Below, piece by piece: positions 1,076 to 60,153 of a stretch of DNA of 64,000 nt. The DNA is taken from contig CP070758.1 in NCBI GenBank assembly GCA_020348925.1, positions 2,183,688 through 2,247,687 of the forward strand, in the 5' to 3' direction. Source of the DNA: Gemmatimonadota bacterium. GTDB taxonomy: Bacteria > JBHIER01 > G020348925. A program made the translations under genes and the position numbers. Each line of letters opens with the position of its first letter. Within the stretch, counting starts at the first letter, position 1. The notes beneath the pieces were generated by a model. That model saw nothing but the letters and a program-made list of their open reading frames with translations. It was not told the DNA's origin and did no database searches.

Positions 1076-1140
1076 CGTTCTCCTTACTCGTGTCTCGTGA
1101 GAGATGGTGACATGGTCCTTATCAGACTCGATCTCAAGAT

Positions 1141-6127: not shown

Positions 6128-6149
6128 GCGATTCTCCTTAATTTTATCA

Positions 6150-7091: not shown

Positions 7092-7412
7092 AAAAACTTT
7101 CGTGTCCGCATCTTTGTACCAATATGTTGCTCTGTCCTCGACACTCTTGGCACTATCCCCCTCATCCCCGTAAAACCCATTCCCGTTCGAATCCCAATAC
7201 TTATTCTCATCCTTGACCGGATGGTAAATTTCCGGATCGGTCTCATCGGTGAGGATGCGGGCATCCGGATCGAAGTAGTCAACGCGGAAGCCTATATTGA
7301 CTATAAAATTCTTGAATTCGATTTTATCCTGAATATATCCCGAGAACTCGATCGGATTGTATTCGTAACGACTCGTATGAATGGTCGTATCGGAATATAT
7401 CTGAGGATGAAT

Positions 7413-20500: not shown

Positions 20501-21955
20501 GACCTCCGTCAAGACCGTAGCAGTGACAGCATTGTACGCATTGACGCGCCCGCTGCCCAGAAGCCCCTCGAGACCGGGATTCTGCGCGTCGATATTGTCT
20601 GCCGTGAGAGCCACCTGTCTGACAATACGGTCGTTAGACCAGCCCGGATGCTGGGATTTCACCAGCCCGCACAGACCGGCCACGATGGGACAGGACATGG
20701 AGCTTCCGTTGGCGGAACCGTACGAGCCGCCAACGACAGGTATGGTCGTTAGCGTCTGCGTTCCGGGGGCACAGACGTCGATGGAAATACCGTACGTGGC
20801 TTCTCGCCTGTCCTGATTATTGATCCATCCCGCGCTGAGAACATTGACATAGCTGGAAGGATAGTGTAAAAGATCGGTATCGTCATTCCCCCCGGAGGCC
20901 ACGACAATACTGCCCAGGCCGTAAACATAATCGATCACATCCTGATTCGCCTGGGAATAACTGCCGAAGCCACCCCAACTGCAGCTGATGATATCCGCCC
21001 CATTTTCGGCCGCGTAAATGATTCCCTGATACCCGAAGGAGACGAAACGAGGACTGTCGTCGTAACTGCACTTGATGGCCATGACCCTGCAGTTCCACGA
21101 CACTCCGGCGACCCCTGTACCATTGTTCGTCACGGCGGCGGCCAGTCCGGAGGTTAAAGTACCGTGATCATAATAGCCCTGAGCATCCGGAGTGGGGTGT
21201 GTCGGATTGTTGTCCTCTTCAGCCAGGTCGTAGCCGATGAGATCGTACACATACGTCTCCGAATTGTTGTCCCAATCGTCATCGTCGACACCGTTGAGAT
21301 CGCCGGGGTCCAGGACCCAGCCGCCGTCCACCCACTCGAGAGTATGGCCGTCCCCGTCGGCATCCTCCCCCAAGTTCTGCCAGATGTTATCGAGCAGATC
21401 AGGATGCTCCCAATCAGGTCCGTTGTCAACTATGGCAATAACTATAGCATCGTCACCATGCTGGATGTCCCAGGCTTGGGCGGCCCGTATGCGGGTCATA
21501 AACGTCTGCTGACCGAACATCGGATCATCCGGTGTTTCTTCAATGACCGGCACGGAGATGGGCTCGGCGTACTCGACGTTCGGATCCTGCGCAAATGCAC
21601 GCGCCACCGATTCCGGATCAAGGTGCGGTGGAAACGAAAGAGAATAGATCCGAGACAGATCCGGCAGACCGGAGCCGTCAGGGATGGGCCTGTGTTGAAA
21701 CCGTTTTCTCACTTCCTGGACGGAGAACCGGTCCATCTTTTCGTCGAAAGAGCTCATTCCAGTGACGGTGAAACGCTCCGTCCCTTTGGCTACCACATGA
21801 GGTTTCAACTTCACGACCACCTTCCCGGGCTCGAGTGTGGCCGACGCTGGGCCCGACAGTGTATGGGACTTTGTATATTGACTTCCCACCCCCGGTATTG
21901 AAATACTTAGAATGAAAAAGCTGAAAATCATAGTACCGGCTATTATACGTCTCAT
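17525..21955 (-). CDS. Very large (1476 aa) secreted subtilisin-like serine protease (peptidase S8) with a T9SS type-A C-terminal sorting domain
   Basis: Signal peptide. S8 catalytic motifs: IAIVDNGPDWEHPDL (Asp), DHGTLTSG (His), GSSMSCPIVAG (Ser). The C-terminus is ...LAQNYPNPFNPATDIRYQI...KIYNVLGQEVRTL...WDGRD...SGIYFYRL...KSMVLMK. Confidence 0.85.
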   Translation of the reverse strand: MRRIIAGTMIFSFFILSISIPGVGSQYTKSHTLSGPASATLEPGKVVVKLKPHVVAKGTERFTVTGMSSFDEKMDRFSVQEVRKRFQHRPIPDGSGLPDLSRIYSLSFPPHLDPESVARAFAQDPNVEYAEPISVPVIEETPDDPMFGQQTFMTRIRAAQAWDIQHGDDAIVIAIVDNGPDWEHPDLLDNIWQNLGEDADGDGHTLEWVDGGWVLDPGDLNGVDDDDWDNNSETYVYDLIGYDLAEEDNNPTHPTPDAQGYYDHGTLTSGLAAAVTNNGTGVAGVSWNCRVMAIKCSYDDSPRFVSFGYQGIIYAAENGADIISCSWGGFGSYSQANQDVIDYVYGLGSIVVASGGNDDTDLLHYPSSYVNVLSAGWINNQDRREATYGISIDVCAPGTQTLTTIPVVGGSYGSANGSSMSCPIVAGLCGLVKSQHPGWSNDRIVRQVALTADNIDAQNPGLEGLLGSGRVNAYNAVTATVLTEVPPKILNFNVTPDDAVNGDGDGLFERGETINVTAQYRNYSLGAATNFQVSLDTDDPDLTIDDGSSFVGTFPADTFQATSDPLVFSIAPDAEPHMARLFLQFLADGGISGTDTFAVILGKMPVLLVDDDDGENNVEGYYTNILDGLNVLYAVWDHASLGSPTPFILSNVPIVIWACEWTFPSLDVGDMAAVEDYLDNGGNLFISGQDVGWDFNEGDRSGFVDFYENYLHAVYYADNSGIQSVDGILGDEIGDGLSFDIYHPGRDADQQYPDEIEPGPGASGVFEYAGGLHHKGGIKYQGDHRVIYFGFGFEAIDATPELDPSQPSAVRTEVMTRILNWVNFIWHDPLKDSEDPSSSYPVEVTVTGDISDLTGVTLYWKKETSPSFSTVTMTHRGDGVYAGTIPPPGTETTIQYYVTTENPYYEWQSPLGAPTKVHAFAVQPDVTAPEILRVDQLPDTYLLSGEREVTAKVTDNLGVGEVTLYYQLNDEPFTGVLMTGTGIPEEYGATLEWSGQFGDIVNYYVEVVDASSNHNTATSDVFAFELIPYLVLGDFETGTGGWDLGTGSGLGGFGVNNSTSIVDSPQGDYEDNEDNPLMYQEAFDLSSCTEAALTFWHFYSFEDGNDFGYVEASSDGESWTALESFTGFDGYPVKKRCTLLEGFCGPGNEEVRIRFRVVSDEAGTADGWTVDDIMIWSKVERGDVNCDGNIDIIDVLGAVNVVLGVETSAYAQWAADFNEDGGVDIIDAINIVNRILNPKAVIPEGRASARVEVRTAPMTCDTRGECAMYVQADVPIAGVQFRLKYGDGVSVGEPVWSHRNPGMTVASNRKDDGTIFVLYSTDGRAMTPGDEPMVTVPYDISSESSDVLLDELILVDVSGRAFQIEEMKTSSDVEGGQVPQEFSLAQNYPNPFNPATDIRYQIVDGGSPLHTTLKIYNVLGQEVRTLVDEFRKPGYYTVTWDGRDGLGNEVSSGIYFYRLSVDRGRWSATKSMVLMK

Positions 21956-22427: not shown

Positions 22428-24674
22428 CTATTTCATCAGAATCATCCGTTTCGTACTCGTGAAGGTGCTGGTTTCGAGACGATAGAAATAAACACCACTG
22501 GCCACATCCAGTCCGGCATCATCTCTACCATTCCAAAGAACGCTGTAGGTTCCAGCGACATGCTCACCGGCCTTCAGAGTCCGAACCTTCTGACCCAATA
22601 CGTTGTACACGGCCAACTCGACAAAGCCATCCTCGGCCAATTGATAGTCGATCCTGGTCTCCGGGTTGAAGGGATTGGGATAGTTCTGAGCCAAGTGATG
22701 ACTCTGCGGAATGGCGGCATCACCACGGGCGGGGTTCACACCAGTGCTTGTTTCGAACCACTCGAAGACCTTCTCGATCGTCTGCGTCAATCCCGCTCTC
22801 GGTAAGAGATCACCGTTCTCCAGAGAGTCAAAAGCAAAGAAGTCGGCCCACGGGAGAAAACACGTCTTGTATCCGCCCCCGTCCTTGCGCACACCGGCTC
22901 CAAAGCCCGTGCCCACAGCGGGATCAGGGTCATACTGAAATATCTGCTCGGCACCTTCCGTTATAGCGACGATCCAGTCCGGCCACAGGTCAAGCGCCGG
23001 GTCAGTCGGATCCCAGGCATCGGGCAGAAAGTTCACACGAATACCCTCGAAATCCCCCATTCCCACGGCCACACTGTCGTATCCACCGTCGTCGGCACCG
23101 TGGTTATCGCTGATGGCATGGGCGACACCGAAGTAGTCGTACATGAACTCACCCACATCATGCTCCTCGTCCCAGTCGCAGTCATACTCCTGGTCGTGTA
23201 TACAGTAATAGTCCTGGTCGATGTACAGCAGGTTATGGGGGTTCTCGCTCGTTCCTGCATCGAGCCAATCGACAAAGGGGTTACCGGCATAGCTCCCACC
23301 GCCGGGTAGGGTGTTCCCACAGCCCCACCCCGAGATGTAGATGGTGCTCCAGCCGTAGTTGAGGACGCTGGCATCGATGCCCTGCATCTCAGCGTTGTTC
23401 CACAATTCGTACTCGTACTGCGTCCCCAGACTGGCCATCAGATCGACGAAGAACGTATCAAGGTCCGGTGTCGATTCATAATCCCAAACGAGGAGAACAT
23501 CCGCACCGGGATGCTCTGGGGCAGTCCGAGCGAAGGTGATCCTGCTTGAGGCTCCCACGAGGCCGGGAGTATCCGTCGCCTCGAGCCAATACGAGACCAC
23601 ATCTCCAGGATTCAGGGCAGGGATCGTGGCCATGAAGGTGTCCGCTTCGCCCTCTTCCATCGGCAGCTCGTTGACGGTTCCGTTGAGATCGTACTTAAGT
23701 GTTGCCGAAACCACCCCGGCCCGAGTCGGATCCTCGGCATCCAGATCCTCAATGACCGCTTTGATGGGAAAAGGCCCTGCACCGTACGTATAGTTCTGCG
23801 CTTGAATATACGGATACGTGGGCGGAGTGTTTTCGTAGTATACGATCACGGCGTCGTACCACATGAAGTACTGCCGGATGAACCATCCATCGTGAGGACC
23901 GGGTCCTTCGCCCGCTGAGTAGAACTTGAAGAAGTTAAAGGGTGTTGTCCAGTCGTACTGGGAGTAGAAACCCCATCCAGCCGTCTGGTAGTAAACCATG
24001 CCAATGTAAAAGGGGTCACGGCCCAAATCGATCTCGCCCTGCAAACCATATGCGGCGGGAATCTCAATCCACACATCAGCATGATCCCTGGTCACGGTGA
24101 ACGGAAACGGTCCCCAGTAATGGTCGAGGTCGTCATCAACAGGATTGGTGATATCATCAAGAGCACTCAATCCGAGCGGGGAGTGACCAACAATATCACC
24201 CGGAATCCACCCGTTGGGATCCGTGATCGGCTCAAAAGTACCCCACCATCCACTGGCATCCGTGCTATCCGTGGAGTAGATGAGAGGATCGTAGTTTCTG
24301 GCATCCCAGATATCAACGAGCAAATTCCCCTCCCAGTTGATGGGTCGGAAACGAATGGCCAGCAGGCTGCAAGCGGCCGCCGGTTTCAGGTAAACAAGTG
24401 ATGAGTCGCCGGGATTGAGGAACCCGAAGTTCACCAGTGTCGAGGCACCCGGATTCCGCCACGTCAAGGTGTCGATGATACCCGTGGTTCCCAAAACCCC
24501 CGGTGTCCTGTGGGGTGTAGGCAGAGGTTTTTTCTGGTGTATGGATTTGAATGCTTTCACATCGTTGTCCTGCCCAGGCCTCAGAATGGCAATCTCACCC
24601 GCATACGCAGCCACCGTCAGACCGAAGAAAATTGCACACAGTAAAAGAAAAGCAGGTAATCTTCTCATCATCAT
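22428..24674 (-). CDS. Secreted protein (748 aa) of unknown function with a T9SS type-A C-terminal sorting domain
   Basis: Signal peptide MMMRRLPAFLLLCAIFFGLTVAAYAG. The C-terminus is ...LAQNYPNPFNPETRIDYQL...VYNVLGQKVRTL...WNGRDDAG...SGVYFYRL...KRMILMK. Confidence 0.8.
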   Translation of the reverse strand: MMMRRLPAFLLLCAIFFGLTVAAYAGEIAILRPGQDNDVKAFKSIHQKKPLPTPHRTPGVLGTTGIIDTLTWRNPGASTLVNFGFLNPGDSSLVYLKPAAACSLLAIRFRPINWEGNLLVDIWDARNYDPLIYSTDSTDASGWWGTFEPITDPNGWIPGDIVGHSPLGLSALDDITNPVDDDLDHYWGPFPFTVTRDHADVWIEIPAAYGLQGEIDLGRDPFYIGMVYYQTAGWGFYSQYDWTTPFNFFKFYSAGEGPGPHDGWFIRQYFMWYDAVIVYYENTPPTYPYIQAQNYTYGAGPFPIKAVIEDLDAEDPTRAGVVSATLKYDLNGTVNELPMEEGEADTFMATIPALNPGDVVSYWLEATDTPGLVGASSRITFARTAPEHPGADVLLVWDYESTPDLDTFFVDLMASLGTQYEYELWNNAEMQGIDASVLNYGWSTIYISGWGCGNTLPGGGSYAGNPFVDWLDAGTSENPHNLLYIDQDYYCIHDQEYDCDWDEEHDVGEFMYDYFGVAHAISDNHGADDGGYDSVAVGMGDFEGIRVNFLPDAWDPTDPALDLWPDWIVAITEGAEQIFQYDPDPAVGTGFGAGVRKDGGGYKTCFLPWADFFAFDSLENGDLLPRAGLTQTIEKVFEWFETSTGVNPARGDAAIPQSHHLAQNYPNPFNPETRIDYQLAEDGFVELAVYNVLGQKVRTLKAGEHVAGTYSVLWNGRDDAGLDVASGVYFYRLETSTFTSTKRMILMK

Positions 24675-24875: not shown

Positions 24876-26027
24876 TCAGAAGAGTTCGTTAATCTTTTCC
24901 ATTAAGTTCAATACAAAGTAACCGAAATCATCGAAATATTTGTATTCTACGACGATCTCGTAATCGACCTCGCTAAAGAATTTCGTTCCTTTGACGAAGA
25001 TCCTGTTTCCGTCCTTCACCTGATCGACCGTCAGTGGGGTATGTGCCGCTGTCGTGGCGAACGTATACGTATCACCCAGACTAAAATCCGGTCTGCCGTC
25101 ACGAATCGTGAACGTCACCTTGCCACCATCAAACCTGCCCGTTTTGATATCATATATCCCCAACAGACCTGTTTCAGAACCCACCACACTAAATTTCCCG
25201 CCACTCTCCTCTGTTGTATCACAGGTGACCGTCCAGTACTCGGTCAGGGTTTCCTCGTCCGAAACCCCGATCTCCGAAATACTGCCTCCGCCGATGTTGC
25301 CGGTTTTTGAGGCGGGAACCGAAGCCACCGCAGCCGCGGACTCCACAGACAGGACTTCATTCACCCCCGTGTGCCGCATCTCTAAGATGGCCCATGTCGA
25401 ATCCGTTGACACCTCAGGCGACTCAACCGTCTCCGTGGCATCCTGCGTGCTGAACTGAGTTGACCAGTCATGGTTGGGAACCAGTTCGTCGACCTTTTCC
25501 ATGGCCTCTATATATCTTTTACTCTTAAAGGAAACTTGAGCAATCAAGACATGCAAGTCGTAGAATGTGATGGTCGAGTCGCCATAAAATTTCCAATCGG
25601 GGTCGAAATGAAGAGTCGAATCGGCCGCGTAGATGACGGCCAGGCTGTCATTTCCAGAGGCCGCATAATTTGTAGCCGTCCCGGCATTGACATGGAGTTT
25701 CCACAGAGACCAATCAGGTCGTGATCGGGTAAAGATGAAATTGTTCAAGGCCTTGTCGAAGGTCCCTGCCAATGTATAAGCCCAGCCTAATCCCACATAC
25801 GCTTCGGTGATCGTGGCATCTCGGTTCAGCACCTGCCTGAATTTGGTAATGGAGGAACTGAAATCCCCCCCTCGATAATCATCCCAGGCTTCTTTCATCA
25901 GAGAATTCGAAGTCGTTATCTTCGTCGGAATGTCATCACTCTCATGGGAGCACCCCCCTATCAGAATCATTGCTCCCACGCACAACATCAACCCAAAGCG
26001 TAAAAGATCCGCTCTTTTCGTCATCAT
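24876..26027 (-). CDS. Lipoprotein with a TPR-like region, function unknown (likely start MMTKRADLL...)
   Basis: Lipobox ILIGGC. A TPR-like helix pair (EAYVGLGWAYTLAGTFDKALNNF). Confidence 0.55.
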   Translation of the reverse strand: MMTKRADLLRFGLMLCVGAMILIGGCSHESDDIPTKITTSNSLMKEAWDDYRGGDFSSSITKFRQVLNRDATITEAYVGLGWAYTLAGTFDKALNNFIFTRSRPDWSLWKLHVNAGTATNYAASGNDSLAVIYAADSTLHFDPDWKFYGDSTITFYDLHVLIAQVSFKSKRYIEAMEKVDELVPNHDWSTQFSTQDATETVESPEVSTDSTWAILEMRHTGVNEVLSVESAAAVASVPASKTGNIGGGSISEIGVSDEETLTEYWTVTCDTTEESGGKFSVVGSETGLLGIYDIKTGRFDGGKVTFTIRDGRPDFSLGDTYTFATTAAHTPLTVDQVKDGNRIFVKGTKFFSEVDYEIVVEYKYFDDFGYFVLNLMEKINELF

Positions 26028-26083
26028 AGCCCGCTCCTTCGAAAGATTGAAAATGATACGATTTCTTGTCGCATACATTCGAT

Positions 26084-28732
26084 CTATTTTAGTAGAACCA
26101 TTCTCTTCGTTCGTTCAAATTGGCCGGTGTGAAGCCGGTAAAAATAGACGCCGCTGGAGACTTCGTTGCCCTCTTCATCTCTTCCGTCCCAGGTGACCGT
26201 GTAGTATCCCGGGGTCTTGGGTCCATCCACCAGCGTGCGGACCTCGTGACCCAAAATATTGTAGACCTTCAAGGTGGTCTTGACAGAGGATCTGATATTA
26301 GATATCTGATATCTGATATCCGTGCTCGGGTTGAACGGGTTGGGATAATTCTGCATGAGCGCATACGTCATCGGCAGCTCCGCTCCGGCGCTGACGCGCC
26401 CCACCTGAATCTGATACTGCCCGAGTCGATCAATCTCCACCGAAATCGTATTGCGAACTCGATCCACTGTGCCTCCAAGACACACCCACTCCGAACCTTC
26501 CAAGCGCCGGATGTCCAATTCCGATTCAGAAGCATCACTCAGTGCTTCCTCGTCGTACTTCAACGTCAACACGGCCTCCCGGTAAAGTCTCCGGCCGGCA
26601 GGTCCGAACTGGTATGCACGTCCCACCTCCTGACCGGACTCGCTTTTCGCGGATATCATCCCTATGCCATTGAAGAAACTCGCTTTGGCATGACTCACGA
26701 TACCTGGGGCGAGAGACGCTACCGGGAACAGGGTGACGTACGTTTGACGCGCAAAAGCTCCGGCCGGCAGCACCAGGCTGGCTGCTCCGTCCGAACTTGT
26801 CAGCGCTGCGCCTGTGCTTGTGTTCGCAATTTTTACCGAACCGCTGATCTCATCCGGGGGAGCCACGTTTCCCGCAATATCCCAACCGCCGGCCAAAATC
26901 TCGTACGTGCCCTCCCCTGAAAGCACCTGCTCCACGTGATATATGATCGTATTCTTCCACCATGTCGAGCCGTCCCCCAGAATCAGAGCATACTTCTCTA
27001 TATCCATCAGAGTGTCGATTTCACCCCCGACGGAGATGACCAACTCAGGACGCTGATCCTGATTATCGACGACATACAGCGACTCGTTGGACGCGACGTA
27101 AATATCAAGATACCTGTCCGCTAAAGGATTTTGCAGTACCCCGATGTGAAGCGGTTCGGGATCGGTCTCGTCATTATCTATGACGATCTGGGTCCTCGTA
27201 TTACTTCCGTCCTTGGCTTCCTTGTGAATGACGGTCAGGAACAACGTCGAATAGTCCTTGCCGCGTCCGTAGCCGGAGGCGTCGAAGACGGTCCGATTCC
27301 GATCATCCAAGGTTAAAAATTCGAGCGTCAAGGAATCGTACAGCACGGGATCCGGCGCAAAAGACATCAAATACATGGAATTCGTCTTTACGGCGATGAC
27401 CCGGAAATTGTGCTCGAGGCCTCCGTTGAAAACAATATTGGGGTTGTAACAGTCGCGGTTCTCGTTGCCGAGACAGGGAGCAGGCGGAATAATCGTTATG
27501 AAATCGGCCGACCATTGATTTCCCGGGTACTTGTAGGGCGCATTGTCCAGGGTCCCCCAATAGGTGAACGTCTTCCCATCCAGCAATGCCCCGGAGTTAT
27601 AATACTTGAACGAGTACTTCCCGTCGTAAAAGTCCTTCTGGGGCCAATCCATGAACCAGGCCAACTGCTCATCGATAAAGAGGCTGTCGAAGTCCACTTG
27701 ACCTTTTCCGTTTGCCGCCAGAGCGGCAGTCACTGCCTCAGTTCCAGCGTTCCTTGTGTCAGTGGCTATCGTTTGAATGACCTCGATCCCGTAGTGTTCG
27801 AAAATGTACTGGAAGAACATGGTTGTCTTGGCCTGATCCTGCACCTCAGGCTGCTCCCGACAATCCAAATTCGTGAGATGAGATTGGTAATAGAAGGTAA
27901 GTGGCATTCTCGAAAAAACATTCGGGTTGGCCAGTCCGTAACCGCATATGAACTGTGAAAAATACGTCAACCCTTCGTGTATCCAGCACTCCTCATCAGG
28001 ATCGTTGCCGTATTGCAGGAGATGCGTAAACTGCTGGGCCACACTCGCCAGACCATCGACAGAAGGATCAAAGGGATAACAATCGATGTAGATCACTTCG
28101 CGGTAATTGCTGAATTCGTTATCGACGGGAGTCAACTGATTGGCCGGATCGAAGTAGCCGATCATGGCCGCGGCACCGATGGCCTCCGTACAGTCTATTA
28201 AAAGGATATAAATTAGTGAATCGCCATCGACATCCGGAGGTTTCCCATAAACGCTCGTCAGTTTTTCGTAGATACCGGCCGTGCTGCTCAGAATGCCCTC
28301 GACCGTATCGTCGGCCGCCGGTGACGTCGTATCGAAGGCCGCAATAATGGCATGCACATCCTCCATGTCGATTCGTATCGAGTCGGGATTTACGATGACG
28401 TCGGTCGCCACGAAGGTCGTATCGATAACGTAGGTTGTATCGATACTGATATCGGTTGTATCGATAGTCATATCGACCGTATCGAGATCCGCTATCTCCA
28501 GAAATCGACCCTTGTCCCATTGAGAGTTCTGAGTCCATACATAGCAGTGTTCCCCGATTCCTCGCAGGGTCATAGGGGTCTTGTAATAATTGGTGAAGAA
28601 GTGGAAGTCATAGAAGTAAAAACTGGTCGTATCGCGCACGCTCCACTTCTGGGCCACTCCTATGTCGCATATTCCCAAGACTAAAGCTGCCACCACGACA
28701 GCCGCCAGAAGTACCTGTATCCTTCGCATCAT
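26084..28732 (-). CDS. Secreted protein (882 aa) with a T9SS type-A C-terminal sorting domain; possibly a hydrolase
   Basis: Signal peptide. The C-terminus is ...LMQNYPNPFNPSTDIRYQI...KVYNILGHEVRTL...WDGRDEEGNEV...SGVYFYRL...KRMVLLK. Confidence 0.8.
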   Translation of the reverse strand: MMRRIQVLLAAVVVAALVLGICDIGVAQKWSVRDTTSFYFYDFHFFTNYYKTPMTLRGIGEHCYVWTQNSQWDKGRFLEIADLDTVDMTIDTTDISIDTTYVIDTTFVATDVIVNPDSIRIDMEDVHAIIAAFDTTSPAADDTVEGILSSTAGIYEKLTSVYGKPPDVDGDSLIYILLIDCTEAIGAAAMIGYFDPANQLTPVDNEFSNYREVIYIDCYPFDPSVDGLASVAQQFTHLLQYGNDPDEECWIHEGLTYFSQFICGYGLANPNVFSRMPLTFYYQSHLTNLDCREQPEVQDQAKTTMFFQYIFEHYGIEVIQTIATDTRNAGTEAVTAALAANGKGQVDFDSLFIDEQLAWFMDWPQKDFYDGKYSFKYYNSGALLDGKTFTYWGTLDNAPYKYPGNQWSADFITIIPPAPCLGNENRDCYNPNIVFNGGLEHNFRVIAVKTNSMYLMSFAPDPVLYDSLTLEFLTLDDRNRTVFDASGYGRGKDYSTLFLTVIHKEAKDGSNTRTQIVIDNDETDPEPLHIGVLQNPLADRYLDIYVASNESLYVVDNQDQRPELVISVGGEIDTLMDIEKYALILGDGSTWWKNTIIYHVEQVLSGEGTYEILAGGWDIAGNVAPPDEISGSVKIANTSTGAALTSSDGAASLVLPAGAFARQTYVTLFPVASLAPGIVSHAKASFFNGIGMISAKSESGQEVGRAYQFGPAGRRLYREAVLTLKYDEEALSDASESELDIRRLEGSEWVCLGGTVDRVRNTISVEIDRLGQYQIQVGRVSAGAELPMTYALMQNYPNPFNPSTDIRYQISNIRSSVKTTLKVYNILGHEVRTLVDGPKTPGYYTVTWDGRDEEGNEVSSGVYFYRLHTGQFERTKRMVLLK

Positions 28733-28916: not shown

Positions 28917-29942
28917 TTAGAAGCCCACTCCCATTGAGAAGCGATGGACACCTTCCAAAATACCCAAATCGGAATAGGCGTAATCGATCCTCACATCGCC
29001 CAGATCGCTGATGTCAAACTTAAATCCAGCTCCAAAGCTGACTGTTTGGCTATCGTGCCGGGCCATGTAACCGGCCCGAAAGGCAATCAGGTCCATGAGC
29101 CAATATTCCGCTCCCATGTTGAGTCGCTCCATGTTGTCGTTGGGGTGATCGGCTTCGACACAGGCTGTCAGAAAATGCTCCTCCGTATCAAGTAAGTCCA
29201 TGGCCAATCCGACCCGAAAGGTTAACGGCATGTGGTACTTTCTGTATCCAGTCGCCTCTTCGGTGACAAATTCGCCCTCCCCTGGGTCAAACCCGAAAAA
29301 GTCCTCCACCTCTCCTGGAGGGGACAACTCCGGGCCAAAGTTCTGGATCGACATACCCATGCGCAGGGATTTGTACCCTGTGAAATAGAGTGTGCCGATG
29401 TCGACTCCCCACACGGATGTGGCCATCCTCTCGTCAGTGGCAGGGTTGTCCACTCCGAAATCCTCCCTGACGATTTTCACGTTCCCGCCGACGGCAAATT
29501 TGTCCGTCAGCCATCTGGCAAAGGAGACCCCCAGCATCAGATCGGAATAGCTGAACTTCTCACCCGTCCCTTGGGGTTGTTCGACGGTGGTCACATTCAT
29601 ATCGCCGGACCCCAGATAACAGAAACTCAAGCCGACTGTGCCAATCCCTTCCAGTGTTTTGGCGAAACCGGCGGCCTGGAGCCCGATATCGGCGACCCAT
29701 TCTGTGTGGGAGAGGTGTACATCGTTCTTCTCCACCAACACCAGACCGGCTGGATTCCAGAAGATGGCCGACGCATCATTGGCCACAGCAACGTATGCCT
29801 CCGACATAGCCACTGCTCTCGCCCCAATGCCTATTTTCAGGAACTGTGCTCCGGAAGTTCCCACTTTGGCAAATTCTTGGCCGGATACGGCCAGGGGGAG
29901 GCAGAGTCCAAGTACACTTATAAAAACGATCGCTTTTCTCAT
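28917..29942 (-). CDS. PorV/PorQ-family T9SS-associated outer-membrane beta-barrel protein (second copy)
   Basis: Signal peptide, then ...GAQFLKIGIGARAVAMSEAYVAVANDASAIFWNPAGL. 341 aa, ending ...SMGVGF. It is paralogous to 1141-2193. Confidence 0.75.
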   Translation of the reverse strand: MRKAIVFISVLGLCLPLAVSGQEFAKVGTSGAQFLKIGIGARAVAMSEAYVAVANDASAIFWNPAGLVLVEKNDVHLSHTEWVADIGLQAAGFAKTLEGIGTVGLSFCYLGSGDMNVTTVEQPQGTGEKFSYSDLMLGVSFARWLTDKFAVGGNVKIVREDFGVDNPATDERMATSVWGVDIGTLYFTGYKSLRMGMSIQNFGPELSPPGEVEDFFGFDPGEGEFVTEEATGYRKYHMPLTFRVGLAMDLLDTEEHFLTACVEADHPNDNMERLNMGAEYWLMDLIAFRAGYMARHDSQTVSFGAGFKFDISDLGDVRIDYAYSDLGILEGVHRFSMGVGF

Positions 29943-29994
29943 CTTAGCGCCCCTCCTTCTATGAATGCTTTGGTCTCTGGATATTTCATATGTC

Positions 29995-32523
29995 TTATTC
30001 GGCCATTAAGATGACAAACTTATCGATTCTTTTTTCGTTCGGAGTCTCGACGACGTACAGATAGAGACCGCTCACGACACTCTGGTCGTTACGAGAGATC
30101 AGATCCCATTCCTCACTGTCGGCACCGGCGAAACTACTGTTCTGATCGTGATAGATTTCATAGACCAAGTCTCCTGTCAGGGTAAAAATGGAGATTTTAC
30201 AGACAGGAGGCAGATTGATGAACATGATTTTATCGTGGTACTGCCTCTCCCACTTGGCCGTTCCCAAATACGGATTCGGAACGACCTTCACACTGTCAAC
30301 CGATGGTGTCGGATCTCCCTCCTCATAGTAAACGACCGGGACCACACCCGAAGGGCCTCCGGTTTCAGGATCTGTTTTGTAGTTTGAACGCGAACTCTCC
30401 TGAGGAGGAAGGAACACGCCGTGGACGTCCTGCTGCCGGCCGAAATCGTACGCAACGATAGAATAATAATATGGCAGTCCGTTCAGTGGAGGATTTATGG
30501 GGTTTCCCCACGGAGTGACGTACGTTTTGTTGCCATCAGCGTCCTCTATGGAGTCCAGACTCTCCGGATCGCAGAACTGGTGATCCGGTGGGATCGATGG
30601 CAGATCCACTAAAATGGGATTCCCCGTCTCGTCTTTCAAAGTGTCTCCCCCCGTGACCCAAACAGCCACCGAATCGTCAACATTATCGTAGGCGTAGATG
30701 AGCTCCCACCCTGCAGGCTTATACAGGCTTCGATAAATCTTATACCCCCTGAAATCGAGAAGGTTATCCTTCACATCAGGGGTTCCCTCGGCGACATTAT
30801 CCCAGACCAGGGTCACTTTGCGGTTGCCGGCACTGTAATTCAAAACAGGCACGAGAGGCGGAGCAGGAAGGACCCAATGGTTGTCACAGTCAAAACATGA
30901 GGGATGATACGGATCGCTGTGAGTGCTCCCTTCGTAGTACGCCAGGAGGGCGGTGTCGAGATGTTTCCGCACACCCTCAAGTCCGCGGCCGACAGCCACA
31001 GCGTAGACGAAAGACAGGGTGTCACCCTCATTGAAATCAAAGGGTCCGGTGGACTGAAGCCACCGATAATCGAAAACAGGAGCGTTGAAGTCGGAATGGT
31101 GGGGGTTGACCATGTACCGTTTCCCCTTCATGGCAACATGACGACCGTCCATATACTCCAGTTTCTCCGTATCACTTCCCGGATCGCTCTCCCAATTCCA
31201 CCAGCTGTGACAGTACGGCATCATAAGACTGTCCGAGAGCGTATAGACGGTGGAGTCCTCCTGAGTTGGAGGGCCGGAATAATTGTAATAGGCCGACAAT
31301 TTATCGCCGACAGGAAGCTTTTTCACCTCACTATTTGTTCCCGTATAAATCAATCTCCCTCCGATGTATCCATCGCAGGGATAGGGCACCTGTGCCCGTT
31401 CCTGAAAGTCGTTCTCCGGTGTCGTTTGATGATCACCATCGTAAATGTAGGACATGTTCCTCGGAACAGCGAATCCGTAGACGACGATTGAGTCCTGCAC
31501 GTCCGGGTGCTTGAAGGCAATTCGCTGCCCGCGTAACTGGGCCACACTATTTACAAAATCCTCCGCTAAGAGGAGCGTGTACTCGTCCGGAAATCCATCG
31601 GGTTCAACAAGCCCCTCGTCATAGTTGGGATTGTCAGGATCCCCGTACGGGACACCCCACTCATCGTATCCGGTGATCTTATCACCGTCCCAGTCGAAGG
31701 GATCGACGATGTCACCTCTGTTGAAAGGGAGACCTGGGGGAACTTCAGGAAGCTCGTCCGTTCTTGAGTCGTTCCTGTCTGTATACTGAGAACCGTCCCA
31801 GCCATCGAAATCGACGAGATCATCGATATGGGGGTCGGACACATCCAGCTGACAGTTGTCAGCATCGAAGATCCAGGCCGCGTAGAAATTTTCGTAGTCC
31901 TTCGTCCCTTCATTAATGATCTTCAATTCAAAAGCGATAATATCGTCGTAGTCGGGCATCGACCATGTCAGACCTCTCTGGAGGACGCGCACATTTAACG
32001 GAGTGTGACCTAAAATACTTTCCTTATCATCATACTCGACGTAGCTGTCGAGAATCCCTCTGGCTTGCGAACCGCTGATGTAGTTGACGGCAATGCGCTC
32101 CACACCGCTGGGGTCCGTGAACAGGGGACCGCTGTTGGCTACCGGATAGAACTCGTAGTTACCGTAATCGGCGTGGCTGACAACATCCTCACCATCAACT
32201 AAGGCACCACACCAGAAGCGACCCTCCCAATTGTATCCATTCTCTGACCCTCCGGGCCACTCGAAGTTCGGCCACTGAAAGTTGGCGTTTCCGTAGATCC
32301 CGTGATTGCTCACGCACGTCCAGAGGGCACCGATGTTATGTATCTGGCCGGTCTCACTGGCATACCACTGTAAACCCTGCTCACCGGTCGGTTTGGCCTG
32401 GGACATGGGGGAGGTCACAGAGCCCTTTGTCCGAGCTTCTGTTTCGCTCACAACACAGCCGAGAAGCAAAGAGAAACCGGCTAAGACACATAAGACGAAC
32501 AGTACCTTTGATTTAATCTTCAT
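29995..32523 (-). CDS. Large surface protein (842 aa) with a lipoprotein-type signal (LLLGC), acidic DxD-rich loops, an FN3-like module and a divergent T9SS-like C-terminal domain. It is a paralog of 2210-6127.
   Basis: The MKIKSKVLFVLCVLAGFSLLLGC lipobox. ...KVTLVWDNV...FRGYKIYRS...YYYSIVAYDFG (FN3-like). The C-terminus is VKVVPNPYL...KISIFTLTGDLVYEIYHD...EEWDL...SGLYLYVVET...KFVILMAE. Confidence 0.8.
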   Translation of the reverse strand: MKIKSKVLFVLCVLAGFSLLLGCVVSETEARTKGSVTSPMSQAKPTGEQGLQWYASETGQIHNIGALWTCVSNHGIYGNANFQWPNFEWPGGSENGYNWEGRFWCGALVDGEDVVSHADYGNYEFYPVANSGPLFTDPSGVERIAVNYISGSQARGILDSYVEYDDKESILGHTPLNVRVLQRGLTWSMPDYDDIIAFELKIINEGTKDYENFYAAWIFDADNCQLDVSDPHIDDLVDFDGWDGSQYTDRNDSRTDELPEVPPGLPFNRGDIVDPFDWDGDKITGYDEWGVPYGDPDNPNYDEGLVEPDGFPDEYTLLLAEDFVNSVAQLRGQRIAFKHPDVQDSIVVYGFAVPRNMSYIYDGDHQTTPENDFQERAQVPYPCDGYIGGRLIYTGTNSEVKKLPVGDKLSAYYNYSGPPTQEDSTVYTLSDSLMMPYCHSWWNWESDPGSDTEKLEYMDGRHVAMKGKRYMVNPHHSDFNAPVFDYRWLQSTGPFDFNEGDTLSFVYAVAVGRGLEGVRKHLDTALLAYYEGSTHSDPYHPSCFDCDNHWVLPAPPLVPVLNYSAGNRKVTLVWDNVAEGTPDVKDNLLDFRGYKIYRSLYKPAGWELIYAYDNVDDSVAVWVTGGDTLKDETGNPILVDLPSIPPDHQFCDPESLDSIEDADGNKTYVTPWGNPINPPLNGLPYYYSIVAYDFGRQQDVHGVFLPPQESSRSNYKTDPETGGPSGVVPVVYYEEGDPTPSVDSVKVVPNPYLGTAKWERQYHDKIMFINLPPVCKISIFTLTGDLVYEIYHDQNSSFAGADSEEWDLISRNDQSVVSGLYLYVVETPNEKRIDKFVILMAE

Positions 32524-32606
32524 CGCCTTTCACCTCCAGAAAAGTTCACCTCTCAAACAAGGGGAGCGGCTGTTGCGTCAACAGCCGCTCCCCTCCCCAT
32601 TGCATT

Positions 32607-35600
32607 TTAGAAAGAGAGCATAAGCCCGGCCCGGACGATTCGCCGCGGGTCCCAAACATATTTCGCCTCGTACTTTCCTTCGGGATCGTTATCGGGAACG
32701 CCGTCGTTATTACTGTCCTGGCTATCGTACCATCCCACTTCATCGATGTTCGACATGTTCTTTTTATTGAACAGGTTCTTGACTTCGAGGAAAAACATCG
32801 GCTTGAACCGGCCGAAGGCGAATCCTTTGTCAATTTTCATATCGGTCCTGTAAGTGGATGGCCTGCGCTCTGTGTTGTTCCGAATCTCTTTGGTCCTCTG
32901 CTCCTCCGTGTAGGGCAAACCGCTCCCGTACGTGAAGAAGAGGTTGATACCCGTATTGTTGAGAAAGGACAGGCCGAGGAAATCGTCATTTTCCGGAATT
33001 CGTAAGTCCAGGTTGAGGTTGAACGTATGGGGCTGGTCCCAATCGAGGGGCCATTCGACGGTCGGCTCGATGTTTTCCGCCCAGGCAATGAGATACCCCT
33101 GAAAAAATCCCGAGCTCTTTCCCCTGGCCAATTGATAGGTGTAGTTGACCGTACCGGAGACGTAATAGGTCGGCCGTTTCACCAGTGAGATTTCAAAGCC
33201 GCGGACATTCCCGTAATCGGTATTGATGGTCAGACCGTACCAGTTATCGGCCGTGTAAAAGACCGATCGCGTATCGGTTAACCCTATGATGTCCTTATAG
33301 AAACCCTTTACCGTCATCTTCAACGACTCGTCCAAATAAGGAAAGAGGTGCTCCACTCCCAGCTCGTAGGACGTGGTCCGTTCCGGTGTGAGATTCGGAT
33401 TGCCGATCAGGGGAAAGGCCCCCTGCAGGTTGTAATTGATGTTCCTGAAGAGATAGTCGAGCCTCGGAATCTGGAAATACCGGCCGTAGCTGAAGTAGAG
33501 TTTGTCCCGTTCCGTAATAGGATGGGACACACCCAATCTCGGGCTCCAGTAGTCCTTCGTCTTGACAGAGGTCGGGTTCTTTATAGAACCACCATCGATG
33601 GGATCAGGCGTCGGATCAGTGAGATCACTGGGGTAGTTGTTGTAATTGGCGTGGAAGAAATCGTAGCGCATTCCGGCATTGACAATCATGCCCTCGAATT
33701 CCATCTTGTCCTGAATGTAAATCGCCCCACCTCTCGGGTAGACTCTGAACCGTTCGTTGTAGGTGTTCCCGCCCGAAGCCATATCGATCTCAAAGTTGTA
33801 GATGTCGTACCACTGCATCTCCATTCCGGTCTTGAGCTGATGCCGCGTGTTCACCTGGCTCGTCACATCGAGGCTCACGGTGGTGACGGTCTTCTCGGAT
33901 TCCATCCACCGATCGCGATAATACGTGGTGCCGTCACCGTACTTGTAAAAGTCATCCACATCCCTCGAATTCCCGAAAGGCGTATTGGCATATTCTATCC
34001 AGTTGCTCTTCTCCTCGGATTCCGGTTCGGATTGTCTATCCCAGAAACCATCACCGTTGAGGTCCTCAAAAGGAGGAGGACCGATCTCGGAGGCATCGAT
34101 GTAATAGTTGTTGTTCTCATCTCGAAAGAGATCCGTACCGTAGGGATCGAACACACCATTCCCATTCAGATCCTCATTGGCATCCAGCCTTCCGTTCAGA
34201 TTGACATCCCACTCGTGAGCTCTCTCGTTGATCTGGCTCAAGAAGAACGTGTGGTAACGGTCTATTTTAAACTCATAAAAAGTGCTCGGACTCAGGGTGT
34301 GACTCCACGTGACGGCCAGCTGATCGGTGGTCCGTTCAGCCACTGGTATGTGGTCCAACATGTTATGACCGCCATGCAGGTTTCCGCCGGCGTCCCTGTA
34401 ACCGTTGAGCACTCCGTTGTGATCAAGATCCTCTGTATCCAAATAACCGTCACCGTCCAGATCCTCGTAATCCTGGACGCGTCCGTCCCCCTCGCCCTCA
34501 TCGCCAGTTCCAGGGATGCCATCGCGTCCGACATCCTCGGTATCAAGCTGTCCGTTGTCGAACCACGGGTTCCCATTTTGGTCCAAGAACACCCCATCAC
34601 GAGCCTGGGGAACAACCTCGACCCATTGGTTCGCGGTGGAGTCCCAGCCTGCTGGGTCGAAGTAGCCGTAATCCTCCAACAAATCCTCATAGGTCGTCCG
34701 CCGGTAGAGATTATACGTGTCCCCGAAGGGTCGAACCATGAAGGTGTTATAGTCGTCCCAGGATTTCAGACCGCTGACGGAGACCTTGTAAGCCGGGGCC
34801 GGCTTGTACGTCACCTTGCCTAAAATGTTCTTCTCCTTGTGGTCCGAATACGGAAATCGACCGTCGTAGTAATTGATATCTCCTGAAACAACGAAATTCA
34901 TCTTGCCGGGCAGGGATTTAAAGAGATAGGATGAGATCGGCTCCGGCCCTGAGAGGTTGAATTCCATCCGTCTCATTTTTTCGTGGCCCTCAACGTGTCC
35001 GGTCCCCGGAATTTTCATCTCATCTTTTCTGTAAAAATATTCGTTCTCATCGAGTTCATCCAAACCCCAATCGCTCGTTTTGAGGCGTACCTTTCCAGCC
35101 CACTTTGGGGTTCCCTCTTTGGCTACGAAGTTGACGATGCCCGACTGCGCATTGGCGTACTCGGCACCATATCCACCGGTCATGACCACCGTCTCCTCGA
35201 CGCCGAGCTCGGGCACATTCGAGTCGAAATTACCGGTATATGGATCCATGAGAGGACTCCCGTCGAGCATATAGACCGCCTCTCCCGTCCGACCGCCCCG
35301 AAAGTGACCATCGACGACACCTGCTTGATAGCTCACCAAATCCTCAACTTGATCTGTGGGTGTGCGCTCGATTGCCACGGCCGGAATAATCTCCGTACTG
35401 GACGTAATGTCCTTTTGGATCATGGGTCTTTCGGCCGTGACCGTGACCGCTTCGAACTCGATGATCGTTGGGTTCAATTCAAAATTGACCGTCGTCGTCA
35501 GATCGACACTCACGGCGACATTCGTCCACGACATGGAATTGTATCCGACCATGGACGCTTTTAAAACGTAAGTACCGGGTGGGACATTGAGGATAAAATA

Positions 35601-35786
35601 CTCTCCGTTCAGATTTGTCGCCGCACCCATTGTCGTTCCTTCAACGACAATATTGGCGCCGGGTAGGGGATCTCCAGAATCTTTATCCTTCACGACTCCG
35701 GCAATTTTGCCCGTCACCCCTCCGAACACAACACCCGGCATTAAGGCAAAGACCAAAAAAGATAAGAACAATTTGCCTATCTTCAT
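32607..35786 (-). CDS. SusC-like TonB-dependent receptor with an N-terminal carboxypeptidase-regulatory-like domain (about 1060 aa from MKIGKLFLSF...)
   Basis: AAGGAGG RBS, then ATG at 35786. GKIAGVVKDKDSGDPLPGANIVVEGTTMGAATNLNGEYFILNVPPGTYVLKASMVGYNS matches the CarbopepD_reg-like domain. Plug and barrel follow, ending ...GLMLSF. An extracellular segment carries multiple DxDxDG loops. Confidence 0.85.
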   Translation of the reverse strand: MKIGKLFLSFLVFALMPGVVFGGVTGKIAGVVKDKDSGDPLPGANIVVEGTTMGAATNLNGEYFILNVPPGTYVLKASMVGYNSMSWTNVAVSVDLTTTVNFELNPTIIEFEAVTVTAERPMIQKDITSSTEIIPAVAIERTPTDQVEDLVSYQAGVVDGHFRGGRTGEAVYMLDGSPLMDPYTGNFDSNVPELGVEETVVMTGGYGAEYANAQSGIVNFVAKEGTPKWAGKVRLKTSDWGLDELDENEYFYRKDEMKIPGTGHVEGHEKMRRMEFNLSGPEPISSYLFKSLPGKMNFVVSGDINYYDGRFPYSDHKEKNILGKVTYKPAPAYKVSVSGLKSWDDYNTFMVRPFGDTYNLYRRTTYEDLLEDYGYFDPAGWDSTANQWVEVVPQARDGVFLDQNGNPWFDNGQLDTEDVGRDGIPGTGDEGEGDGRVQDYEDLDGDGYLDTEDLDHNGVLNGYRDAGGNLHGGHNMLDHIPVAERTTDQLAVTWSHTLSPSTFYEFKIDRYHTFFLSQINERAHEWDVNLNGRLDANEDLNGNGVFDPYGTDLFRDENNNYYIDASEIGPPPFEDLNGDGFWDRQSEPESEEKSNWIEYANTPFGNSRDVDDFYKYGDGTTYYRDRWMESEKTVTTVSLDVTSQVNTRHQLKTGMEMQWYDIYNFEIDMASGGNTYNERFRVYPRGGAIYIQDKMEFEGMIVNAGMRYDFFHANYNNYPSDLTDPTPDPIDGGSIKNPTSVKTKDYWSPRLGVSHPITERDKLYFSYGRYFQIPRLDYLFRNINYNLQGAFPLIGNPNLTPERTTSYELGVEHLFPYLDESLKMTVKGFYKDIIGLTDTRSVFYTADNWYGLTINTDYGNVRGFEISLVKRPTYYVSGTVNYTYQLARGKSSGFFQGYLIAWAENIEPTVEWPLDWDQPHTFNLNLDLRIPENDDFLGLSFLNNTGINLFFTYGSGLPYTEEQRTKEIRNNTERRPSTYRTDMKIDKGFAFGRFKPMFFLEVKNLFNKKNMSNIDEVGWYDSQDSNNDGVPDNDPEGKYEAKYVWDPRRIVRAGLMLSF

Positions 35787-36404
35787 TTCAGGCACCTCCT
35801 TTCTCCGCTTAGGGCCCGACATCCTACTGTTACGAAAAGAACGAAAATCCATTGGCTTTGTTTGAACCCTCCTTCAAGTATAATTGTCTCGGCACCTCCT
35901 TGGCTTGGAATTCACGTCTTTTTCACGCAGTATCGTATCACCCCGCGTTCCTTCAAATACGTAACACACCCTATTCAGCTGCTCCCCTCCTTTCTTGATA
36001 AGATAAATGAAGACAAACGAAAACACATAAAGGTCATACTAAACCGTTTTAGAGGGGAGCAAATATTATGCCATAGGTAAATGTCCTTTCGCTTCTTCAG
36101 GAGTCAGGAATCACTCTAACAATAACTTTTTCCAAAGGTTAAAATAATATTCTTTTCATGGGCTCAACTTTAGATAGTCTGTTATGAACAGCGTCCTTAC
36201 AGACCTATAAATGTAGCACTTTTAGGGATTTTTGTCAACTCTTTTTTTCAGTTTTTTGGGAATTTCAAAAAAATCTTTGGAATCCCCCGGCAAAGGGGAA
36301 ATGATATCATCACTATTTTCATAATTATTATATAGTTAACAAATACATCAGTTTCAAAAATTTTCTCGCTCTTGTCTCAAATCGTGCAGTTGATCAACCG
36401 CAGA

Positions 36405-59716: not shown

Positions 59717-59745
59717 CATGCAGTTGTTGAGCATTGGTTTCAGGA

Positions 59746-60153
59746 GGCCAAAGCAGACCGTAAGCCGAGTTCTGTATGTGATGACCATCTATCTCGTTCT
59801 GACGTTGCCGTCAGAATCAAGCGACCGACCCGAGAGTTGTGGCCTAACGGGCCGTTAGGCTTCGTCGAAAATACTTTCGGCGAATCCTCTCCTATTTGGT
59901 CTTGCACCGAGTGGGGTTTACCAAGCTCCCGATGTCACCAGCGGGACTGGTGAGCTCTTACCTCACCTTTTCACCCTTACCCCGTGAGATGGTGATGTCA
60001 CCTCTCCCCTGGGGCGGTTTCCTTTCTGTGGCACTTTCCTTATCCCGACCAACCGAGACACTCTGTGTTACGGAGCACCCTGCCCTGCGGTGTTCGGACT
60101 TTCCTCCCTTCCAATCTCAATGGCCATCGAGATTGGAAGAGCGATCATCTGTT
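59746..60153 (-). ncRNA. rnpB: RNase P RNA, bacterial type A
   Basis: Minus-strand sequence contains GGGAGGAAAGTCCGAACACCGCAGGGCAGGGTGCTCCGTAACA, ACAGAAAGGAAACCGCC, GTAAGAGCTCACCAG, GGTAAACCCCACTCGGTGCAAGACCAAATAGG and 3' ACAGAACTCGGCTTA. P1 is predicted from GGCCAGAGCAGAAC (5') pairing with GGTCTGCTTTGGCC (3'). The ends are approximate to about +/-10 nt. Confidence 0.75.

Follow-up and report, generated by a model that had tools for sequence, protein, structure and literature searches.

A TonB-dependent receptor encoded with a PorV/PorQ-family barrel and its C-terminal-domain partner in a Gemmatimonadota genome: the candidate core of a surface uptake system

In the loci of the SusCD, RagAB and BtuBG uptake systems, the gene of a receptor is followed by the gene of its extracellular partner and then by those of surface binding proteins or enzymes, and such paralogous loci are linked to regulators; RagAB imports peptides made by the proteases exported by the secretion system of type IX (T9SS) (10.1101/755678), and BtuG caps BtuB (PMC10404256). 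Within the T9SS itself, the C-terminal domains (CTDs) of PorZ and PorU remain uncleaved, it has been proposed that PorQ picks up PorZ at the translocon and anchors it independently of PorV and PorU (PMC10947112), and the cargo with a type-B CTD is served by the cognate PorP/SprF carriers, which then anchor it (PMC9143113, PMC10994853). The present work concerns a locus, termed cassette 2, in a stretch of 64,000 nucleotides (the window) from the genome of a Gemmatimonadota bacterium (NCBI GenBank assembly GCA_020348925.1, contig CP070758.1, positions 2,183,688 to 2,247,687 of the forward strand), where a TonB-dependent receptor (TBDR2), a CTD-bearing protein designated X2 and a barrel of the PorV/PorQ family (PorVl2) are encoded side by side. 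It is argued here, with a confidence slightly better than even, that cassette 2 would be the core of an uptake machine similar to SusCD, RagAB and BtuBG, which does without surface lipoproteins and in which the X protein is held by a barrel of its own. The three core genes, with lengths in amino acids (aa), are the following.

32607..35786, minus strand: TBDR2, TonB-dependent receptor, 1059 aa, with signal peptide, N-terminal domain, plug and barrel
29995..32523, minus strand: X2, 842 aa, with signal peptide, supersandwich, FN3-like domain and a CTD of its own
28917..29942, minus strand: PorVl2, 14-strand outer-membrane barrel of the PorV/PorQ family, 341 aa

The three open reading frames (ORFs) lie at the coordinates, in the gene order and on the minus strand reported by the initial annotation, with a small correction for the receptor, to which 1060 aa had been ascribed: its ORF spans 32607-35852, and the conserved start is M23 (35786), giving 1059 aa from this probable start. 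A second cassette in the window (cassette 1, 1141-9332), proposed earlier to be a paralogous counterpart, does have the same order and strand, and pairwise alignments place the paralogy of all three genes far above chance. The two barrels, PorVl1 and PorVl2, are 36% identical over the full length (E 1e-60), and for the receptors TBDR1 and TBDR2 the identity amounts to 41% over the N-terminal portion, with E 1e-66, and to 32% over the C-terminal one, with E 5e-36. For X1 and X2, only two blocks are aligned by BLAST, an FN3-like block of 50 aa with 44% identity (E 2e-7) and the last 107 aa with 33% (E 3e-10), and the profile-profile comparison of the two families relates them over residues 481-694 with a probability of 99.8% and E 8e-30.

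The conservation of cassette 2 was followed in a scan in which each GTDB species was represented by a single genome and which gave at least 566 stretches with an X2 relative; 80 loci were kept, and the ORFs called in them were searched with the proteins of the window. The X2 relatives are aligned at full length with 40-50% identity in many candidate phyla, and the 80 loci, all from uncultured metagenome-assembled genomes (MAGs), come, among others, from KSB1, LCP-89, Calditrichota, Neomarinimicrobiota/Fidelibacterota, WOR-3/Hydrothermales, Fermentibacteraceae/Aegiribacteria/Sabulitectum, Tariuqbacter and Electryonea. Nearly all of them keep a six-gene order on one strand, namely the receptor, X, the PorV-like barrel, an M30-like protein, a TPR protein and a second CTD protein, to which an S8 protease is added in the window. 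The PorV-like gene stands directly 3' of X in 76/76 loci with room for it (median gap 16 bp), and the receptor gene upstream of X in 69/69 (median gap 48 bp); the homologs of the fourth gene and of the TPR gene are found in position in 54 of 69 loci (by a single-sequence search) and in 49 of 56, respectively. Homologs of ExbB, ExbD and TonB flank or interrupt the operon in 13-14 of the 80 loci, and a large gap separates the receptor from X in four loci, which are those of the Fermentibacterota type, with ExbB-ExbD-ExbD-TonB in between. Such a variant operon, with ExbB-ExbD-ExbD-TonB between the receptor and X, was observed in the Aegiribacteria/Fermentibacterota-type loci L005/L006, L081, L084, L085 and L087, where in L005/L006 and L087 two GWxTD-domain proteins are also encoded after the PorV-like gene, ahead of the CTD and TPR genes.

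The receptor TBDR2 matches the Pfam families CarbopepD_reg_2 (2e-20), TonB_dep_Rec_b-barrel (3e-24) and Plug (1.5e-3, the match of TBDR1 being stronger, 1e-7), contains a TonB-box-like motif VTVTAE between the N-terminal domain and the plug, and has a barrel of the 22-strand type with an acidic loop insert. The plug, barrel and TonB box place it in the superfamily of TonB-dependent receptors, and its TonB dependence is predicted. The label "SusC-like", under which the receptor had first been described, could not be kept: TIGR04056 gives 67.5 bits vs the cutoff of 368, within residues 27-150 of the N-terminal domain only, and X2, the product of the adjacent gene, has no SusD-like domain and differs from SusD in its fold. 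The membership of TBDR2 in the SusC/RagA group was dropped for this score, which is far under the cutoff, and for the want of an adjacent SusD/RagB homolog. Compared with the PDB sequences, the receptor matches only carboxypeptidase-D-like N-terminal domains, and the Rfam scan revealed no riboswitch or other element upstream of either receptor, the matches in the window being an RNase P RNA and one tRNA only. In the loop of TBDR2, an acidic motif DVG[RA]DG...G.GD.GEGDG was observed (residues ~440-480 in the numbering of the 1081-aa ORF), and the same motif recurs in X1 of the window at residues ~499 and ~871; DVG.DG is present in 70/80 orthologs of X1, and the acidic motif in just 6/80 orthologs of TBDR2. 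It may be a calcium-binding insert common to the proteins of both cassettes.

With SusCD, RagAB and BtuBG the locus shares the succession of receptor, putative extracellular partner and further surface proteins, as well as the existence of paralogous loci linked to a regulator. It differs from them in that X is not a lipoprotein, has a fold unrelated to those of SusD, RagB and BtuG, and is furnished with a T9SS CTD and a barrel dedicated to it; the receptor does not reach the cutoff of the SusC/RagA model, and the complex of the cassette proteins is one that we infer from the genes.

The barrel PorVl2 reaches 233 bits on NF033709 ("PorV/PorQ family", cutoff 90), and PorVl1 205 bits, the barrels covering model positions 1-326 of 326, which assigns them to the PorV/PorQ family (PF19572); the Pfam PorV score of PorVl2 is 55.5 bits vs the cutoff of 27. 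The narrower equivalog models are all missed: that of PorV, NF033710 (cutoff 250), with 102 bits for PorVl2 and 73 for PorVl1, that of PorQ, NF033711 (cutoff 220), with 90 and 93 bits, respectively, and that of PorV2 (cutoff 325) with 85 bits for PorVl2. The sole match of PorVl2 among the PDB sequences is PorV of Flavobacterium johnsoniae (E 4e-13), and its AF2 model, with 14 barrel strands and pLDDT 87, finds the same protein as the best match by Foldseek (8gl6_F, E 5e-17, TM 0.70; 6h3i_F, TM 0.71), followed at a lower level by FadL and TodX (TM about 0.55) and BamG (TM 0.44). PorVl2 and PorV of F. johnsoniae and Porphyromonas gingivalis have in common a FadL-type fold with 14 strands and a conserved motif at the N-terminus, PorV being also the best structural match; PorVl2 differs by the equivalog score (102 vs the cutoff of 250), the length (341 aa vs about 390-400 aa) and by being encoded with one specific partner. 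In the locus L010 of a KSB1-type MAG, a separate gene of the PorV family (4992-5936, minus strand) has 202 bits on the PorQ model, whose cutoff is 220, so that this lineage has a more PorQ-like protein besides the operon-type barrel. The gene is divergent, lies about 725 bp upstream of the receptor of the operon, and has as neighbours lipopolysaccharide genes, those of an LpxL-type acyltransferase and of a heptosyltransferase II. The search seeded with it returned a small family of 147 matches, with none from the source contig among the 120 listed.

The fold of the barrel also calls to mind the outer-membrane protein assembly accessories BamG and BamH of Bacteroidota, of which the barrel and X could be analogues: BamG is a 14-strand barrel of the FadL family that anchors a surface protein, BamG and BamH have been reported from most phyla of the Fibrobacterota-Chlorobiota-Bacteroidota (FCB) group (PMC12578637, PMC12611786), BamH is a surface protein with a carbohydrate-binding fold, and PorVl1 does match the BamG model NF053685 weakly (30 bits, E 2e-7). 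However, the cutoff of this model, 250, is far off, PorVl2 has no match to it, the TM value is 0.44 to BamG vs 0.70 to PorV, X contains a T9SS CTD whereas BamH is a lipoprotein, and no gene of BamA or BamD is found nearby. Such a role was rejected on scores and fold and is regarded as highly improbable.

The N-terminal domain of X2, of about 490 aa, is a beta-supersandwich of the galactose-mutarotase/glucoamylase-N-like type, a fold typical of the carbohydrate-binding domains in glycoside hydrolases and phosphorylases. The FN3 domain ascribed to X2 before is present as an FN3-like sandwich in the AF2 model only, the Pfam family fn3 being not detected at E<0.01. No Pfam family matches X2 above its cutoff, the matches at the C-terminus being weak, and the profile of the X family has no match among the PDB sequences. 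In the alignment of X, W, D, G and P residues are invariant at dozens of positions, with no cysteine among the invariant ones, for which reason the role of a PorU-type sortase was rejected; X as a lipoprotein was rejected as well, the lipobox-like motif being found in 3/40 orthologs only.

The family-specific CTD of X2 (residues ~738-842) is highly conserved with many invariant residues and falls outside type B (CHU_C 19.8 bits vs the cutoff of 27, no match to TIGR04131) as well as type A (TIGR04183 18.1 bits vs the cutoff of 23, PF18962 not reported). The C-terminus of X2 also weakly matches the C-terminal ends of the models for PorZ and PorU; among 40 orthologs of X, 38 match the PorZ model, and weak type-A matches occur in 23. 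The C-terminal module, for which a sharing between X1 and X2 had been claimed, proved real and distinctive when a hidden Markov model (HMM) was built from X residues 738-842: it sets the module apart from the ordinary type-A cargo (no more than 25 bits), with at least 88 bits for the 80 X orthologs, except the divergent WOR-3 ortholog of L079 at 60 bits, and with 54-66 bits for X1 of the window and for three X1-like proteins from the loci L025, L033 and L056. The additional X1-like genes in these three loci are each directly followed by a gene of the PorV family, a gene of this family coming after all four extra genes with an X-type CTD in the loci, and since all genes with the X-type CTD adjoin such a gene, the proposed tie between each PorV-family gene and the neighbouring CTD protein is borne out. 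By these profile scores, the X-type CTD is a distinct class, with the uncleaved CTDs of PorZ and PorU as its closest relatives.

The opinion that one PorV canonically serves all the cargo, which would make the barrels of the cassettes unusual, needs to be revised, since dedicated barrels for CTDs other than type A are known, such as PorQ for PorZ and PorP/SprF for the type-B proteins; given these precedents, a cargo-specific carrier is not outside the current model. The pair PorQ-PorZ of P. gingivalis is similar to the pair considered here in that a barrel of the PorV/PorQ family goes with one surface protein, whose CTD cannot be clearly assigned to type A or to type B and stays uncleaved, the CTD of X being most similar to that of PorZ. 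The differences are that the passenger of PorZ consists of two beta-propellers, delivering anionic lipopolysaccharide to PorU, while that of X is a supersandwich with an FN3-like domain; that X and its barrel are always co-encoded, also with a TonB-dependent receptor; that there are several paralogous pairs of X and barrel, one lineage of which is tied to LacI and CBM20; and that PorVl2 is under the PorQ equivalog cutoff. In the type-B systems SprB-SprF and PG1035-PorP, a barrel is likewise encoded beside its CTD partner and anchors it without PorV (PMC9143113, PMC10994853), but the barrel is of the PorP/SprF and not of the PorV/PorQ family, the CHU_C matches of X are weak and sub-cutoff, and the known type-B partners are adhesins with no link to a receptor.

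The comparison bears on the explanation implied by the initial annotation, according to which the barrels are cargo-specific shuttles only, X is then released or handed over, and the linkage to the receptor reflects co-regulation and not a complex. It differs from the uptake-machine reading solely in the events after export, and it accords with the strict adjacency of the gene with the X-type CTD to the PorV-family gene, as well as with the current model, in which each substrate is recognised by its cognate carrier at the translocon (PMC10994853). However, in two separate lineages the order of receptor, X and barrel has persisted across very long evolutionary distances, which co-regulation alone hardly explains, and the CTD of X is highly conserved and similar to the CTDs that PorZ and PorU retain; the shuttle-only explanation is considered quite unlikely.

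The second of these lineages is that of cassette 1, with the following genes.

1..1080, minus strand: gene 4 of cassette 1, a short type-A CTD protein, cut by the window edge
1141..2193, minus strand: PorVl1, barrel of the PorV/PorQ family, 350 aa
2210..6127, minus strand: X1, 1305 aa, with the end of a supersandwich, an FN3-like domain, an X-type CTD as in X2 and acidic DVG[RA]DG repeats
6150..9332, minus strand: TBDR1, TonB-dependent receptor, its frame broken by TAA
9350..10462, minus strand: LacI-family regulator directly upstream of TBDR1 (LacI 1.7e-17, Peripla_BP_3 3e-31)

The frame of TBDR1 is interrupted by a single in-frame TAA at 7413-7415, resulting in the ORFs 7413-9332 and 6150-7091 with the frame unchanged across it; the gene could be a pseudogene or a variant of the strain, or the stop an error of sequencing. 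A metagenome scan with an X1-type alignment gave at least 545 relatives, of which 80 loci were kept, whose proteins are 32-60% identical to X1 along all of its 1305 aa. The PorV-like gene adjoins X1 in 62/64 of these loci (after it in 60 and before it in 2), the receptor is upstream of X1 in 44/45, and a LacI homolog is found upstream in 8 of the 39 cassette-1-type loci with room for it. The usual order of receptor, X1 and PorV-like gene is changed to receptor, PorV-like gene and X1 in L133 and L134, and in L159 (4699-18767) two cassette-1-type triads stand in tandem on one contig. The barrels of the cassette-2-type loci score best vs PorVl2, and those of the cassette-1-type loci vs PorVl1, bar one (a truncated ORF, L140); the receptors mostly sort by type too, with five cassette-1-type loci having a receptor that scores best vs TBDR2. 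As the barrels and most receptors sort by cassette type, the triads have largely diverged as units. Judging from these relationships, the two cassettes are old, separately conserved lineages of one architecture of TonB-dependent receptor, X and PorV/PorQ-family barrel, and the two PorV paralogs, pointed out earlier as a local oddity of the window, belong each to an ancient and widely conserved lineage and not to a recent duplication.

The gene 4 of cassette 1 is in other organisms often a carrier of starch-binding modules, CBM20 being present in 13/20 orthologs and CBM48, AMPK1_CBM, X25 or CBM53 in some; the copy of the window corresponds to the C-terminal part of this family (hhalign E 8e-40). 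Because of the linkage of LacI and CBM20 in other organisms, cassette 1 most likely serves the uptake of alpha-glucan, which is the most likely substrate of the cassette-1 type as predicted from gene content, and in such surface proteins with carbohydrate-binding modules the cassette-1 type resembles the starch utilisation system.

Cassette 2 had been delimited as a unit ending at 28917; the operon continues, however, downstream to 22428 and probably to 17525, so that, judged by gene order, cassette 2 is the front half of a larger operon of six to seven genes. Its further members are listed below.

26084..28732, minus strand: gene 4, type-A CTD protein, 882 aa, with a degenerate M30 (lugdulysin/hyicolysin)-like domain
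24876..26078, minus strand: gene 5, TPR-containing protein, 400 aa, with weak TPR matches
22428..24674, minus strand: gene 6, second type-A CTD protein, 748 aa, with an Ig-like domain
17525..21955, minus strand: probable gene 7, S8 subtilase with dockerin and type-A CTD, 1476 aa

The three downstream CTD genes (4, 6 and 7), unlike X2, pass as type A. The CTD of gene 4 matches FlgD_ig (1e-9) and TIGR04183 (34.6 bits vs the cutoff of 23), and the profile of its family matches lugdulysin (7bb9/7bb8) with E 3e-31. Its HExxH motif reads QQFTH in the window, other members having HEFTK, HQLLR, DNFQR and the like; it is degenerate in 24/24 orthologs examined, in none of which both histidines are kept, and the downstream motif W..EG[LI] is mostly kept. 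The domain is homologous to the M30 metallopeptidases, with no intact zinc site, and the protein is predicted to be most likely an inactive pseudo-protease of a binding type. Gene 6, kept in position across the loci, scores 37.9 bits on TIGR04183, and its family profile matches 5ak8 (E 4e-5) as something like the C-terminal Ig-like domain of the P. gingivalis peptidylarginine deiminase; the passengers of the gene-4 and gene-6 families show nothing beyond the CTD in Pfam. Gene 7 contains Peptidase_S8 (2e-40) and Dockerin_1 (1.6e-7), and in the WOR-3 loci L069, L070 and L073 the operon is likewise succeeded by an S8 homolog (360-405 bits). The best promoter-like site (36238-36210) and the sole strong terminator-like hairpin (17496-17468), situated just past gene 7, enclose all seven genes, which as evidence from consensus only is consistent with an operon that probably extends to 17525.

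Outside the window, the source genome encodes a protein P0129 (JSV84_05935; 1132 aa), in which an M30-like passenger is joined to the N-domain of X: it is 58% identical to the gene-4 protein over residues 7-521 of the 882 aa and 63% identical to X2 over residues 65-550, and it ends in a dockerin and not in a CTD. This fusion suggests that the M30-like domain and the N-domain of X act together. Type I dockerins were observed in both the T9SS-secreted S8 protease and P0129, which hints at an assembly of the cohesin-dockerin type on the cell surface of the organism.

According to the uptake-machine reading, the TonB-dependent receptor would import the substrate with the energy from ExbBD-TonB, and X would be its constant extracellular partner, exported via Sec and then through the T9SS, with its CTD staying on, uncleaved. 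The dedicated PorV/PorQ-family barrel would collect X at the translocon and then hold it on the surface, as PorQ does PorZ. The products with type-A CTDs would add surface parts, namely the inactivated M30-like protease, the second CTD protein and, in the source genome, the S8 protease; the operon would supply the TPR protein as well, and cassette 1 would encode a sister system built on this plan. A single design is deduced from the invariant triad in two lineages, the linkage to the TonB genes, the PorZ-like CTD, the PorV-like fold and the link to LacI and starch-binding modules. X, introduced earlier as the secreted "cargo" of the cassette, looks rather like a fixed partner of the receptor than like a secreted product.

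Several observations weigh against this reading. The contact of X with the receptor and its binding to the barrel are ones that we infer. The NCBI name of X2 is "T9SS type A sorting domain-containing protein", so that, with the weak type-A matches in 23/40 orthologs, the boundary of the CTD class is not sharp. In the sister cassette, the receptor of the window has a stop codon, and the gene 4 of the window has neither CBM20 nor any other Pfam match. The clues to the substrate of cassette 2 conflict, the fold of X being of a carbohydrate type and the partners protease-like: peptides or protein, the leading guess, are suggested by the pseudo-protease and the S8 protease together with the neighbouring catabolic genes of the leucine/branched-chain type (36.5-57 kb), and a glycan is suggested by the fold of X. 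Finally, core T9SS genes adjoin the operon in two loci, the KSB1 locus L003, where SprA, an M28 peptidase, ExbB, ExbD and TonB precede it, and the LCP-89 locus L007, where a PorU-like C25 peptidase with a CTD lies downstream; and the universal conservation, with each of the 80 loci coming from a different genome, suits a housekeeping machine better than a nutrient system.

The last two points belong to an explanation of the operon as a housekeeping T9SS module, in which PorVl2 is the general PorV, that is, the carrier of type A, the receptor is a T9SS barrel similar to PorF, X is an attachment subunit similar to PorZ or PorU, and cassette 1 is a specialised offshoot. It would account for the single conserved version of the operon, for SprA upstream in L003 and the C25 peptidase downstream in L007, and for the two or three type-A cargo genes directly downstream, which need a carrier; PorV is the best structural match of PorVl2, the CTD of X resembles those of PorZ and PorU, and PorV of Cytophaga hutchinsonii co-purifies with SprA and a TonB-dependent receptor related to PorF, which is part of the T9SS of P. 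gingivalis (PMC8564354). However, PorVl2 misses the PorV and PorQ equivalog cutoffs widely, and the receptor has a plug and a repeated linkage to ExbBD-TonB, whereas PorF is reportedly plugless (PMC8564354). Moreover, the sister cassette of the same three-gene design is tied to LacI and starch-binding modules, X lacks both the invariant cysteine of a PorU-type sortase and the beta-propellers of PorZ, and the adjacency of SprA or PorU is limited to two lineages. The housekeeping module is considered unlikely, though an explanation to be reckoned with.

The rest of the window contains several features apart from the two cassettes. Between them, the segment 12000-16000 has a low GC content of 0.41-0.43 vs about 0.52 elsewhere, and the low-GC ORFs of the plus strand include a domain like the N-terminal one of apolipoprotein N-acyltransferase (13607-14362) and an exosortase EpsH-like fragment (15961-16530); the segment may be foreign or degraded. 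A long run of genes on the minus strand (36534-57963) resembles the catabolism of leucine/branched-chain amino acids and fatty acids, with enoyl-CoA hydratases, four thiolases, a short-chain dehydrogenase/reductase, two acyl-CoA dehydrogenases, a class IV aminotransferase, biotin carboxylase and carboxyltransferase, a putative metallopeptidase (DUF6775) and a homolog of Thi4. The RNase P RNA is of class A (59746-60160, minus strand, 274 bits), with its 3' end overlapping the annotated start of a RecJ-like ORF (58007-59788) by about 40 bases, and the tRNA is tRNA-Val(CAC) (61139-61215, minus strand).

In the literature searched on the T9SS and PorV in these phyla, on PorV-like paralogs, and on TonB, T9SS and SusD in the FCB phyla, with subscription journals mostly outside the coverage, the operon is undescribed and there is no description of receptor-linked PorV-family barrels; the Caldithrix genome paper does not mention the operon, and the current NCBI names are generic ("PorV/PorQ family protein", "T9SS type A sorting domain-containing protein", "hypothetical protein"). 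New here are the PorV/PorQ family as a dedicated carrier and anchor and its link to a TonB-dependent receptor, both as proposed from the gene neighbourhoods. In a wider form, which we put forward tentatively and at somewhat less than even confidence, the uncultured phyla related to Bacteroidota (KSB1, Calditrichota, Marinimicrobia/Fidelibacterota, WOR-3, Fermentibacterota, the source "Gemmatimonadota" MAG and others) may build their main uptake complexes with a lid or binding subunit delivered by the T9SS and permanently held by a barrel via a third, uncleaved class of CTD. It is possible, to the same degree, that such "utilisomes" are assembled by the T9SS instead of from surface lipoproteins, in substrate-specific paralogous sets for alpha-glucan and for peptides or other substrates.

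If this is true, the barrels of the PorV/PorQ family would gain, beyond the shuttling of cargo, the role of anchors for the partners of nutrient transporters, and about six protein families from hundreds of species, now "hypothetical" or generically named, would gain a function. It would also explain how abundant uncultured heterotrophs have surface machines for capture and import without a SusD-type lipoprotein beside these receptors, and would bear on the diversification of the T9SS carriers and the origin of the SusCD-like systems.

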